From assembly GCF_044324875.1 (NCBI RefSeq), contig NZ_CP172185.1: a DNA stretch of 64,000 nucleotides; one strand, given 5' to 3'. The translations under genes and the position numbers were made by a program. Position 1 is the first letter of the stretch, and every line of letters begins with the position of its first letter. The notes beneath the pieces were generated by a model, which saw only the letters and a program-made list of their open reading frames with translations, did not search any database and was not told the origin of the DNA. Source of the stretch: Escherichia coli (GTDB lineage Bacteria; Pseudomonadota; Gammaproteobacteria; Enterobacterales; Enterobacteriaceae). This document shows, one piece after another, positions 50,580-64,000 of this stretch.

Positions 50580-51255
50580 CCCGCCGGATAAATAATATCC
50601 TTACGGCAATTGGTAACCGTATAAAAGGCCTGATGTTTTGAACTGCCGTTGACGGAGATGAAGTAATCTGCTTTTTTGGCAGCATCCAATAACGCATCAA
50701 TGGCAACGCGATCATTGTTGAGCTCAATTCATAGCGCCGGATACAATTTCAATAAGGCGTCTTTACCACGTTGCGTGGCATTTTTGTAATACTGTAAAAC
50801 ACCCGCTTTTTCCCGCGGAGATTCCGATACAACGGAGACGTTACGCTTGCTGGTATGGTTTCTGTCGGGAGGGTACTACCGATATCCTTACAAGCGTAGA
50901 GCTGTTCCATCATGCGTGCCAACAACAACATACGGATATCCAACCGTTCCCAGCGACGTAGGAACATCTCGCGAATGTTAATCCAGTACTGTAGTCGGCG
51001 ATCGCTATCACCAGATTCACAATCATAAAGAACCTCTGCAATATCAATAGTATACTTGAGAATTTGTTTCGATTCATTTTTCGTGCACAACATTTCGATA
51101 GCTTCGAGGGCATCATGGTATTCTTTGTGACTGAAGGTCCATGAAAGTAACGTATCGAGAATAATCCCTGTAGTTGCCAAAATGAGTTGATAACTACACA
51201 ATGATTTGTTTGTACAGAAGGAACGATTATTATATGGTCTTGTAGGGCAGAGCAC
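50580..51255 (-). pseudogene. Degraded gene of unknown function (at least two frameshifts)
   Basis: Minus-strand coding signal continues in three different frames: 51255..50749 (168 aa), ~50790..50745 (RGKDALLKLYPAL) and 50735..50580 (ELNNDRVAIDALLDAAKKADYFISVNGSSKHQAFYTVTNCRKDIIYPAGKGLQA). Confidence 0.4.
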
Positions 51256-51372
51256 GTTGCTACCGTAACAGCGTTGAAGATAATTTGGTCGAGACTGTAG
51301 TGGACCAGTTTAAAATGTAGCAGAATTTTAAAAGTGTCAGGTGCATAGAATTAAAAAAATGGAACTATAAAA

Positions 51373-53106
51373 ATGGAAATCATGTTACCAAAAAACACCT
51401 TATATGATAGAGAGCAAAATATCTTTTTTGAAAAGGTTACGGCCTTAATTGGAGAAAATGGTGCTGGTAAATCCTCGATTTTACAATCCGTATTTATTAA
51501 CTGTTTAACAAAAAAATATCTACCAGAAACAAAGGTTGTTTGTTTTTCTTCTGGACAAAATGAGAAATACTCAACGTACTTCTCTGATTATCTTTCTCAT
51601 GAAAGGCAAGCAAATAGAGGTCTTAGCTTAGATTGTTGTTATTACGATAAATCATGGTCAAAGTTACTAATATTCATATCCACAATTTGTAAATCAAATG
51701 GTCTTGTTAGAAATTTTTTATGTGAGAAAGGCTATATTGATGTATCAGATGATAAAAATGATGATATATCAAGCAAGCTTACATTGACGGTCCGAGTAAA
51801 TTCGGCTTACGTTAATCGAGTAAAAATGGCATTAGCACAAGAAGAACAAGGTATTGAAAATACTTTAAGGTATTCAGCTTATCATAGGACTTTAGAAAGT
51901 TTCATTAATAATATTGTTAATGCTGATTATGATTTCGAGTCTCCACTTGAAGCTCAAGAGATCTTGCTAACTCATTCAAATTTTTTCAATCCATCATTTG
52001 AGGAAGGAGAAGATTCCTTTTTTGATCCTATCATAACATTTTTCACTCAAGCAGCAGATAATGATTACTTTATAATAAAACCATCATTACAGCTAGAGTT
52101 TAAAAATAATATCGAACTGAATGATATTAGTGATGGGGAATATCAAGTACTCTTTTTATACTCTTTGCTTGATATTTTTGATAGTCCTAATACTTTATTC
52201 TTATTAGATGAGATAGATTCCCATTTACATTACAAGAATATTGAGCTCTTATGGCATCGACTACATAGTATTAATGGTTATGCGATAACAACCACCCATC
52301 TATTAGACTCAATTACAGCTACTGATAATGATTTTAAAAACTTAAAGATTGTTGATAAAGGAAAAATAAAAGAAGATGATAAAATAAAAACTATAATAGA
52401 ACGTTTATCTGTCTTGACAAGAATATCAGACGTACAGTTCGAAGTGTGTCGTAAACTAGAAAACATTGTATTGATGGATGATTATAATGATTGGACTATT
52501 TTTTATGCCTTAGCAAAGAAAAAAGGACTTGATGTATCAAAGTTAGATGGCCTCCATGCAATAAAACAGTCCTCTGGTTACGATAATTTAAATCAAGAGT
52601 TCGCAAAACCAAAAATAGAGTGGATTAATTCGCTTTTAAATGTAAATACTGATAAAAAAGTCAAAAAAATATTCATGATCTGCGACAAAGATGAGGCTCC
52701 AATTACCTATCAGAAAGATGGAGTTCAAGTCAATGGAAGTGAATGTTCAAAACATATAGCGAAGTTAGAAAATAAAAACAAAAATAAAATATATCTCCTT
52801 GTCTGGAAAAGAAGAGAAATAAAAAACTACTTATTATCTTATACGGCATTGTCTCATCATGGATTTATCGGGCAAATAAACAATGGTGATCTGCCGGCTA
52901 ACAGTTATTTAAAAGAAAACGATCCTGGAGATAATTCAGCAATTAGCCGGCTTAACGTAAAACATTGCATCACAAAAATAATTGATTCTGATGGTATAGG
53001 ATTAGATATATCAAAACTTTACTCATATATAGAACTTATACCACCTGCTGAGATCAGTGAAGATATAGTGAATATGTACAATTTTTTGGTGGAGAAATTA
53101 AAATGA
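51373..53106 (+). CDS. ABC-type (SMC/RecF/OLD-like) ATPase with C-terminal Toprim/DUF4435-like putative nuclease domain
   Basis: 577 aa; Walker A GENGAGKSS, signature-like SDGEYQ, Walker B LFLLDEIDSHLH, H-loop TTTH; C-terminal acidic motifs (VLMDDYND, ICDKDE, KRREIKNYLL) resembling OLD/DUF4435 Toprim; very AT-rich; stop overlaps start of next gene (ATGA). Confidence 0.75.
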   Translation: MEIMLPKNTLYDREQNIFFEKVTALIGENGAGKSSILQSVFINCLTKKYLPETKVVCFSSGQNEKYSTYFSDYLSHERQANRGLSLDCCYYDKSWSKLLIFISTICKSNGLVRNFLCEKGYIDVSDDKNDDISSKLTLTVRVNSAYVNRVKMALAQEEQGIENTLRYSAYHRTLESFINNIVNADYDFESPLEAQEILLTHSNFFNPSFEEGEDSFFDPIITFFTQAADNDYFIIKPSLQLEFKNNIELNDISDGEYQVLFLYSLLDIFDSPNTLFLLDEIDSHLHYKNIELLWHRLHSINGYAITTTHLLDSITATDNDFKNLKIVDKGKIKEDDKIKTIIERLSVLTRISDVQFEVCRKLENIVLMDDYNDWTIFYALAKKKGLDVSKLDGLHAIKQSSGYDNLNQEFAKPKIEWINSLLNVNTDKKVKKIFMICDKDEAPITYQKDGVQVNGSECSKHIAKLENKNKNKIYLLVWKRREIKNYLLSYTALSHHGFIGQINNGDLPANSYLKENDPGDNSAISRLNVKHCITKIIDSDGIGLDISKLYSYIELIPPAEISEDIVNMYNFLVEKLK

Positions 53107-63326: not shown

Positions 63327-63348
63327 TCGGGCATACTGCCCGATTTTT
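63327..63348 (+). terminator. Rho-independent terminator (tcgggca-tac-tgcccga followed by TTTTT)
   Basis: 7-bp stem, 3-nt loop, T5 run, 16 nt after the stop at 63311 of the shifted frame. Confidence 0.55.
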
Positions 63349-63495
63349 GTGCTGTCATTATTGGCAATATCTCAATAGGCGTTGAGAAATGGTGCAATTT
63401 AATCTTGCCAGAGCGCTGTTACTTGGGGACGAAATTAATGGGCTCCTGCTGTAGTTACATCAACGCCTGTCTATACAAAAACAGGCGTAGCAAAT

Positions 63496-64000
63496 TCATG
63501 CAGGCAAATACGTTTTCTTAAGCGGCACCAATAGCTTAGTCTCTATATCCACTTGCTCATAGTTTTCCACTAACGCGCGTACCAAATCATCCAGCGTCCA
63601 TAGCGTCAACGGGATTGTAGAACGATCGGCCTCATAACGCGCATCCTTGCTGAATCCGCCGGTACTAACATACAGCCCGCGATCGTCTTTATGGCGGCCA
63701 CCGATAAAGCTACGGATTTGCTGGCTGCTCATCTGTTCCCGCCGGTGCTTCACCTCAACAATAATGCGCGGATTTTCAAACCCAAATCCGTCAGGGGAAG
63801 CAATGATATCTTTCCCACGGTCAGCACCCGCAGGCGATACCTGAGTTTTATATCCCATGCTACGTAATACGCCAGCGACCAGATTCTGCATCTCATCCCA
63901 GTCGAGACGGTTGATACGATCCTTGATGCCTTCAAAAGCAATCATTTCCATGTCGCGCAGAGGATTAGAAACAACCTCATCCTCTTCACCTGAAACAGGT
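63496..64000 (-). CDS. Mrr-cat (PD-(D/E)xK) restriction endonuclease-like protein, C-terminal part only (5' end beyond window)
   Basis: Frame is open to the window edge; catalytic-core pattern GADRGKDIIAS...IIVEVKHR; sequence is not that of K-12 Mrr as far as I can recall. Confidence 0.65.
   Translation of the reverse strand, partial: PVSGEEDEVVSNPLRDMEMIAFEGIKDRINRLDWDEMQNLVAGVLRSMGYKTQVSPAGADRGKDIIASPDGFGFENPRIIVEVKHRREQMSSQQIRSFIGGRHKDDRGLYVSTGGFSKDARYEADRSTIPLTLWTLDDLVRALVENYEQVDIETKLLVPLKKTYLPA

Follow-up and report, generated by a model that had tools for sequence, protein, structure and literature searches.

The window, a stretch of 64,000 nucleotides from the Escherichia coli contig NZ_CP172185.1, ends in DNA that belongs, with high probability, to a ~19.6-kb defence island. 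Positions 50487-64000 would make up the nanS-proximal two thirds of this island, which fills the interval between nanS and the tRNA gene leuX, known as defence hotspot #37. Our confidence applies jointly to the whole explanation: the island, a PacII-like Type I system of restriction and modification (RM), an ATPase/methyltransferase pair, a TIR-domain gene, an Mrr-like nuclease gene and the tail of a dpdD gene. The island is ordinary in kind, one further filling of a catalogued hotspot. Its discovery potential is limited to one module embedded among Type I genes, in which an ATPase with a Toprim-like domain is paired with a methyltransferase (MTase) fused to a single target recognition domain (TRD) and a conserved helix, an architecture termed M·S½.

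The region beyond position 64000 was read from a proxy genome, E. coli O17_K12a (RefSeq, 99.5% identical). On the left, the conserved flank is nanS (49525-50511, plus strand; annotated as nanS in the 99.5%-identical genome). Its junction with the island lies at ~50487-50501, as the alignment to K-12 breaks at ~50487 and the homology to a dpdD-bearing contig reaches 50501. The K-12 homology thus ends ~25 bp ahead of the nanS stop codon. The final ~8 nanS codons (50487-50511) differ from K-12 and are supplied by island DNA, and DNA matching this tail sits just downstream of dpdD in a dpdD-bearing contig. The protein has 328 aa in the window and 326 aa in K-12, whose nanS-leuX interval is occupied by the unrelated ~40-kb KpLE2 region. 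Past the window end, the proxy shows the rest of the Mrr-like gene, MkoC, an RNase-HI-like fragment, an HNH_2 gene, an integrase fragment, leuX and ahr, in this order. The tRNA-Leu(CAA) gene leuX was found by ARAGORN in the proxy at the far end of the island, 19.6 kb off, with the core gene ahr next to it. The RNase-HI-like ORF (L001 37458-37835 in the proxy), which lies between the MkoC and HNH genes and encodes a 'hypothetical protein' of 125 aa, matches the first ~70 residues of RNase HI only (NCBIfam, E 1e-10) and is probably another gene fragment of the island.

The earlier note on this DNA, made from the window alone, had seen no integrase or attachment (att) repeat within the 64 kb. Indeed, neither was found there, and ARAGORN detected no tRNA in the window either. 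Beyond the window end, where that note had proposed to look, an integrase fragment and leuX were recovered from the proxy, and no direct repeats. The DUF4102 integrase at leuX, which would mark an integrative element if intact, is a fragment of 37 codons annotated as a pseudogene; an intact integrase is present at the same leuX site in E. coli 19A14. The 3' end of leuX (25 nt, ≤3 mismatches) has no second copy in the 49-kb locus, and a general direct-repeat scan gave no plausible att repeat.

The distribution of the island was determined in a set of 5,426 complete genomes of E. coli. Exactly 102 of them carry the dpdD stump (861-bp query), and exactly 102 the ATPase/MTase pair, both always on the chromosome and in single copy; the Type I block was found in 109, with two M genes in every case. 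By comparison, the nan genes were present in ~5,137 genomes, and the possibility that these genes are core and syntenic across E. coli was thereby ruled out. The earlier description of the region beyond nanS toward leuX as hypervariable agrees with these counts, with the presence of KpLE2 at this site in K-12 and with a different gene set in 19A14. The rarity of the island, the break against K-12 that sets the left border at ~50487, the far end at leuX and the match to a known hotspot together mean that the interpretation as a defence island stands.

The leuX site corresponds to defence hotspot #37 of E. coli (Hochhauser et al. 2023, in the summary given by PMC12707154). At this hotspot defence genes occur in 97% of isolates, with Type I systems in 17% and also BREX, DISARM, Dnd and Dpd (2%) (PMC12707154); leuX is absent by name from the text of Hochhauser et al. 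2023. The window island shares with the hotspot the same tRNA-Leu(CAA) leuX site, a strain-variable defence content including Type I RM and Dpd, and an arm-type (DUF4102/P4-like) integrase at the tRNA end. It differs in that only 37 codons of the integrase remain and that an att repeat could not be detected. Its particular gene set was not found described in the literature searched. The content consists mostly of defence genes: a search for defence systems on the island proteins, as the earlier note had advised, returned PADLOC and Pfam matches to Type I RM, a ThsB-like TIR protein (ThsB1), the Mrr-like candidate PDC-S02, MkoC and HNH. All genes that the note had listed (the ATPase/MTase operon, the M-M-S-R operon, the TIR gene and the Mrr-like gene) were recovered at or near the positions it gave, both in the open reading frame map and in the proxy annotation. 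Outside the window, MkoC of the proxy matched over its full length (PADLOC, 1685 bits) and carries Pfam AAA_11/AAA_12 and PLDc_2, so that a single protein with helicase and PLD nuclease domains, the arrangement of Mokosh type II, is present.

Several points weigh against this explanation. Neither scan found an att direct repeat, and the integrase survives only as a stump. The right end was taken from the 99.5%-identical proxy and not from the genome of the window itself. An exact match to the whole island is absent from the genome collection. Finally, the history of an overwritten Dpd island, set out below, has been read from a 626-bp stump.

Immediately after nanS lies an unannotated gap (50512-51372, minus strand, in the proxy annotation) that contains a broken gene. 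The earlier note had counted at least two frameshifts in it. In a frame-aware alignment to the closest homologue, these were located at ~50780 and ~50572; the gene also has a stop codon at 50729-50731 (TCA->TGA) and is truncated on its 5' side at 51168. The reconstructed protein matched the NCBIfam equivalog model NF041061 DpdD at profile positions 501-704 of 704 (E 2e-46), so the broken gene (50543-51168, minus strand) is the last ~30% of dpdD, with the 5' ~70% lost. Pfam gave no match to the reconstruction; the identity came from NCBIfam DpdD and from the closest homologue (P0001, 250 aa, 62% identical), which carries Pfam PF28109 DpdD. Neither an intact copy of this gene nor a diverged copy of the stump was found in the 5,426 genomes by megablast or sensitive blastn, and the stump is confined to the 102 island genomes. 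A Logan contig carries the same dpdD tail adjoining queD, with nucleotide homology to the window from 51168 to 50501.

Dpd clusters (dpdA-K) are known at leuX: one is located there in Salmonella Montevideo (PMC5699537), and Dpd accounts for 2% of E. coli hotspot-37 loci (PMC12707154). The border gene resembles such a cluster in fitting the DpdD equivalog model at this very site. It differs in that only the last ~200 codons of one gene remain, and these are broken; none of the other dpd genes (dpdA/B/C for modification, dpdE-K) was found among the island proteins. Most likely, the border gene is a relic of a former Dpd occupant. A Dpd island for 7-deazaguanine DNA modification would once have abutted nanS at this site, and an incoming block reaching from the ATPase to the TIR gene would have overwritten it, leaving behind 626 bp of dpdD and the final nanS codons. 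The junction between the stump and the incoming block falls at 51169-51198, where dpdD homology ends (51168), homology to Salmonella starts (51199) and the drop in GC content begins.

A sharp GC drop at ~51.3 kb had been noted before, and within 51.0-51.5 kb the values indeed go down to ~0.30, starting from 0.43-0.47. The earlier description of the island as AT-rich holds for two segments, 51199-55004 (GC 0.301) and 58148-59755 (GC 0.312), and fails for the rest. Values of 0.46-0.49 are regained over 55.0-58.1 kb and again from 59.76 kb on, the other island segments lie at 0.435-0.473, and the AT-rich share amounts to only 40% of the in-window island. Overall, the in-window island has a GC of 0.400 versus 0.477 for the rest of the window, and the whole 19.6-kb island, measured in the proxy, 0.418. 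In Vibrio, the ATPase and M·S½ genes are as AT-rich as in E. coli (GC 0.33 and 0.32), and low GC is thus a property of these genes, not a mark of a separate entry into E. coli. For hsdS, the GC is 0.322 in the window versus 0.392 in Vibrio.

How the island was assembled can be judged from related loci. A single integrative element gained in one event, dpdD stump included, is an unlikely origin, although the whole arrangement is common to all 102 genomes, the block from ATPase to TIR is collinear with a Salmonella island at 88-93% nucleotide identity, and an integrase remnant abuts leuX. The collinear Salmonella island, whose homology begins at 51199, lacks the dpdD stump. At its leuX site E. 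coli 19A14 carries an intact integrase, a helix-turn-helix (HTH) gene and M1-M2-S-R, without the ATPase pair. Moreover, the hsdS cassette and the TIR gene vary among the 102 genomes, and the att repeat expected of a single element was searched for and not found. The window also joins the left part of one sublineage to the Type I part of another, with 100% identity of the dpdD stump and the ATPase pair to the group of RM14516, EcPF15 and JNE25-005, and of the Type I block to that of O17_K12a and CB7453. These mixed identities over 50512-62364 suggest either recombination between sublineages inside the island or a source genome outside the collection. A stepwise composite is preferred, and on these comparisons the modules are separable, so that the term 'composite', used in the earlier note, is apt. 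It does not extend to the ATPase/M·S½ pair, which is systematically tied to Type I operons.

The Type I block is encoded on the minus strand in the order M1-M2-S-R from 62262 to 55085, with genes overlapping or abutting. The first gene, hsdM1 (60763-62262, 499 aa), carries an NPPF motif (ANPPFSLKEW) and matches chain A of PDB 7VRU (E 9e-296). It is followed by hsdM2 (59303-60766, 487 aa), which has NPPY (ANPPYSIKKW) and matches chain B (E 2e-252). The two proteins are 46% identical to each other, and the cross matches (chain A with M2, chain B with M1) were much weaker than the cognate ones, placing each M protein in its own clade. Downstream lie hsdS (58152-59306, 384 aa), a specificity subunit by PADLOC (Specificity_I, E 1e-30), and hsdR (55085-58147, 1020 aa), with Pfam HSDR_N, SWI2_SNF2 and T1R_D3-like domains and PADLOC REase_I at E 3e-110. 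PDB 7VRU and 7VS4 represent the PacII M1M2S methyltransferase (Zhu et al. 2022, PMC9613975). In the non-canonical Type I subgroup to which such systems belong, the upstream M1 with NPPF makes N6-methyladenine (m6A), M2 with NPPY beside S makes N4-methylcytosine (m4C), and R is located 3' of them (Morgan et al. 2016, PMC5100572). The earlier note had reported the M-M-S-R operon correctly and had not recognised this subtype. By its motifs and gene order, the operon can be assigned to the described m4C/m6A subtype (PacII / Sen483I-type). It is predicted to place m6A on one strand through M1 and m4C on the other through M2, and to restrict DNA that lacks these marks. Both Ocr and ArdA inhibit PacII.

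The likeness to PacII extends to two paralogous M genes, M1 (NPPF) upstream and M2 (NPPY) by S, with R downstream, and M1 and M2 nearly match the solved chains. The window system differs in having another hsdS and another M2 C-terminus, and another recognition motif is therefore expected. M2 is near-identical to PacII M2 over the first ~400 aa and diverges only in the last ~120 residues. Against the Vibrio crassostreae orthologues, the identity was 86% for M1, 75% for M2 and 86% for R, compared with 23% for S. The hsdS gene and the 3' end of hsdM2 together form the second AT-rich segment (58148-59755, GC 0.312). Homology to Salmonella was not found over 58144-59756, and the cassette allele of the window occurs in only 20 of the 109 genomes, the remaining ones covering 78% of the operon; other alleles take its place in most island genomes and in Salmonella. 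The hsdS gene and the last ~120 codons of hsdM2 thus behave as one strain-exchanged specificity cassette. Their joint exchange is consistent with a need for the C-terminal helix of M to match the conserved region of S. An HTH gene upstream of M1, as found in Vibrio, is not in the window.

The TIR-domain gene (62506-63156, plus strand) was also listed earlier as present, which it is; its decay had been missed. The product matches Pfam TIR_2 and the PADLOC model ThsB1 (E 3e-89), the latter over profile positions 2-177 of 319 only. Compared with the Salmonella gene and with the intact 327-aa allele of EC17GD31, a length that most island genomes carry, 232 bp are missing between 63103 and 63104, which puts the rest of the gene out of frame and costs the protein its C-terminal (Y4lF) domain; the Salmonella copy has both TIR_2 and Y4lF. 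The deletion is shared by the window and at least the 20 closest genomes, and the truncated 216-aa product is still annotated as a normal coding sequence by PGAP. The gene is thus a pseudogene-like allele, inactivated at its 3' end by the deletion. Although the TIR protein strongly matches ThsB1, as in Thoeris (ThsA + ThsB), the window gene is truncated and stands without ThsA, no ThsA-like gene being found in the island, and in three contexts the TIR gene lies divergent beside a Type I hsdM. Homologues with ~80% nucleotide identity, the intergenic region 62365-62506 included, were observed divergent from hsdM of an unrelated M-S-DUF4268-R system; this pairing, again without ThsA, occurs in E. 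coli SA186 and EC_T6 (L004 and L005, ~9165-10142) and in L014 (from 21221).

The last gene in the window is Mrr-like (minus strand, from 63496 to the window end at 64000, which cuts it). The window holds its 3' half, residues ~162-329 of 329, including the whole Mrr_cat domain. The full-length 329-aa protein of the proxy matches Pfam Mrr_cat at 191-304 (E 1e-23) and the PADLOC candidate PDC-S02 (E 1e-80). At the opposite end of the window (~1-6100), adjoining yjiS/yjiR, another Type I RM operon was noticed that is unrelated to the first; it reads M-S-R and is followed by a hypothetical gene. It corresponds in position to the Immigration Control Region (hotspot #36), and the window thus covers two adjacent defence hotspots.

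The incoming block begins with the gene of a 577-aa protein (51373-53106, plus strand). From its models and invariant residues, residues 1-350 seem to form an ABC-type ATPase and residues 352-577 a Toprim/OLD/AriB-like C-terminal domain. The AlphaFold models are confident, with a pLDDT of 88 over the full length and of 91 over residues 352-577. At its N terminus the protein is an ATPase of the ABC/SMC type, nearest to retron PtuA ATPases. In the C-terminal domain, D369-D370-x-N372-D373, C437-D438-x-D440-E441 and R480-R481-E482 are invariant, and the acidic residues among them would fit a metal-dependent Toprim-like site. A family-level match was not obtained: PADLOC gave only weak matches (AriA, mad3, AbiLi, PtuA, GajA), the best being AriA (E 3e-15, residues 200-297 only), with the fused AriAB model at E 1.5e-6. 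NCBIfam TIGR04435, 'restriction system-associated AAA ATPase', scored 34 bits. A profile of the ATPase family run against PDB sequences found generic ABC, SMC and UvrA Walker-region matches only, and Pfam returned no significant family, DUF4435 included, for 16 C-terminal domains. Membership in MADS was rejected, as the mad2, mad3 and MAD2 matches lay far under the cut-off. Homologues of 570-600 aa are common in gamma-proteobacteria, where they are annotated merely as AAA family ATPase; the Vibrio crassostreae orthologue is 59% identical. Relatives were found on 4 of 72,556 plasmid records and in no viral contigs.

The neighbouring gene, overlapping the ATPase gene by 4 bp, encodes the M·S½ protein (53103-55004, plus strand, 633 aa). 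It contains Pfam N6_Mtase at 131-397 and Methylase_S at 460-615, with NPPF and DPACGTGG motifs, and matches PDB 7EEW, a 638-aa Type I methyltransferase subunit, over residues 8-612 (E 2e-87). The 7EEW entry also contains T7 Ocr. Seo et al. 2022, to go by its title, reportedly presents a protein of the M·S½ kind as a minimal intact Type I methyltransferase, and we take 7EEW to be the structure from that work. Like the (M·S½)2 type of 7EEW, the window protein combines an N6-MTase domain, one TRD and the conserved helix in one polypeptide, and it can be assigned by this architecture to the known minimal M·S½ kind; it differs in sequence, being ~40% identical as judged by eye from the alignment. 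The methyltransferase motifs are intact in 6/6 orthologues compared, and the Vibrio crassostreae orthologue is 39% identical. The identity of the TRD (41-49%) was at least as high as that of the MTase domain (36-40%), compared with only 23% for hsdS. Thus, the TRD of M·S½ is not hypervariable.

The relation of the pair to Type I genes was analyzed in 8 neighbourhoods from exact-protein look-ups and in 37 species loci that a genome scan had yielded and that were sorted by means of a protein panel. M and S follow directly downstream of the ATPase gene in all 36 informative loci, as a fused M·S½ in 11 and as separate M and S in 25. An hsdR gene lies directly upstream of the ATPase gene in 30 of the 33 loci with a usable upstream flank. 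The family occurs in two architectures, R-ATPase-M-S and ATPase-M·S½ beside R. In five marine species the order is co-directional, M1-M2-S-R-ATPase-M·S½, which is the six genes of the window rearranged; in E. coli and Salmonella the pair and hsdR point in opposite directions. Type I systems of unrelated kinds also precede the pair in Raoultella, Klebsiella, Pseudoalteromonas and Acinetobacter, and in Cellvibrio and Psychrobacter it has no Type I neighbour at all. The ATPase family is therefore a systematic companion of Type I methyltransferase genes, not an independent neighbour. In a subfamily of 598-aa ATPases, R-ATPase-M-S is often followed by a conserved protein 'X' of 650-680 aa without a Pfam domain (L007 11512-13530; L009 11599-13551; also L027, L028, L039 and L046-L048). 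The ATPase gene is split into several open reading frames in Leclercia adecarboxylata (L057), where hsdR and hsdM are split too, and in Pseudoalteromonas shioyasakiensis (L059), so the module also decays in the wild.

As to function, we tentatively favour a guardian or decoy role for the pair in the style of PrrC, PARIS and Ronin. The Type I-like methyltransferase would keep the ATPase-nuclease latent. A phage anti-restriction protein that mimics DNA, for instance Ocr or ArdA, would bind to the methyltransferase and release the ATPase-nuclease, and the freed Toprim nuclease would then abort the infection. This is favoured because of the embedding in Type I loci, the build of ATPase plus Toprim-like domain, the presence of Ocr in the PDB entry of the homologue 7EEW, and a TRD whose variability does not exceed that of the catalytic domain.

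PrrC, encoded at the EcoprrI locus, combines an ABC-like ATPase N-domain with a C-terminal nuclease domain. In Ronin, HsdMS serves as bait for Ocr and ArdA, and the effector is RonA, a 61-aa membrane protein. The module resembles both in that its putative effector sits within, or adjoins, the locus of a Type I methyltransferase. The candidate effector domain is Toprim-like and corresponds neither to the anticodon-nuclease domain of PrrC nor to RonA. A ronA-like small gene is not present; the candidate effector is the 577-aa ATPase, and hsdR, which Ronin lacks, lies adjacent. PARIS, typically borne by phages or satellites and triggered by Ocr, comprises the ABC ATPase AriA and the nuclease AriB (DUF4435/Toprim) in two genes without a methyltransferase partner. 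The window module differs in that ATPase and Toprim-like parts are fused in one 577-aa protein, which is always paired with a methyltransferase/specificity protein, scores far under family level with AriA and AriAB, and has no relative in viral contigs. The ATPase/M·S½ module is not in PADLOC 2.0, and the literature searched held no description of it; searches on Rlo/AbiL and on Type I-embedded ATPases likewise gave nothing relevant to the module.

The overlap of the two genes, the methyltransferase motifs intact in all six orthologues and the solitary pairs in Cellvibrio and Psychrobacter would also suit a self-contained RM system, with an (M·S½)2 dimer as the methyltransferase for a symmetric site and the ATPase/Toprim protein as restriction subunit, an OLD-type substitute for HsdR; restriction subunits, too, consist of an ATPase plus a nuclease. 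We regard this as rather unlikely. The TRD is conserved and not diversifying, unlike hsdS in the same islands (23%, with allele swapping), and the adjacent hsdR in 30/33 loci would be needless for a self-sufficient system. Furthermore, in the 598-aa subfamily the sole M and S of the operon are those that follow the ATPase gene, so that HsdR is already the restriction subunit.

It is less probable still that M·S½ serves as a second methyltransferase/specificity core sharing the neighbouring HsdR, with the ATPase as an accessory regulator, for example of assembly or restriction alleviation. In Staphylococcus a single hsdR is shared by several hsdMS loci, the co-directional loci place hsdR between M1-M2-S and the ATPase-MS genes, and the name given to the 7EEW homologue in PDB is that of a methyltransferase subunit of Type I RM. 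However, the pair is found beside three unrelated HsdR families (1020-aa PacII-like; 1085-1091-aa; 770-aa in the sister subfamily) and has the opposite orientation to hsdR in E. coli and Salmonella, and the conserved acidic Toprim-like motifs point to a nuclease over a regulator. The guardian role remains our preferred reading. It is possible that the 577-aa protein, as a member of a widespread uncharacterised gamma- and beta-proteobacterial family built into Type I operons, forms a new guardian class together with its methyltransferase.

As an island, the region adds little, since 102 RefSeq genomes carry it annotated. With its Dpd stump, deleted TIR gene, swapped hsdS cassette and integrase stump, it is a compact example of defence-system turnover at one hotspot. 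The PacII-type system is present in ~2% of complete E. coli genomes and is relevant to the interpretation of methylomes and to the transformation of such strains. The linkage of the ATPase-Toprim protein with Type I genes makes the module a candidate for second-line immunity that guards restriction systems against inhibitors of the Ocr/ArdA type. If this is true, the logic of PrrC, PARIS and Ronin would be united in one module that senses DNA mimics and answers by a Toprim nuclease.

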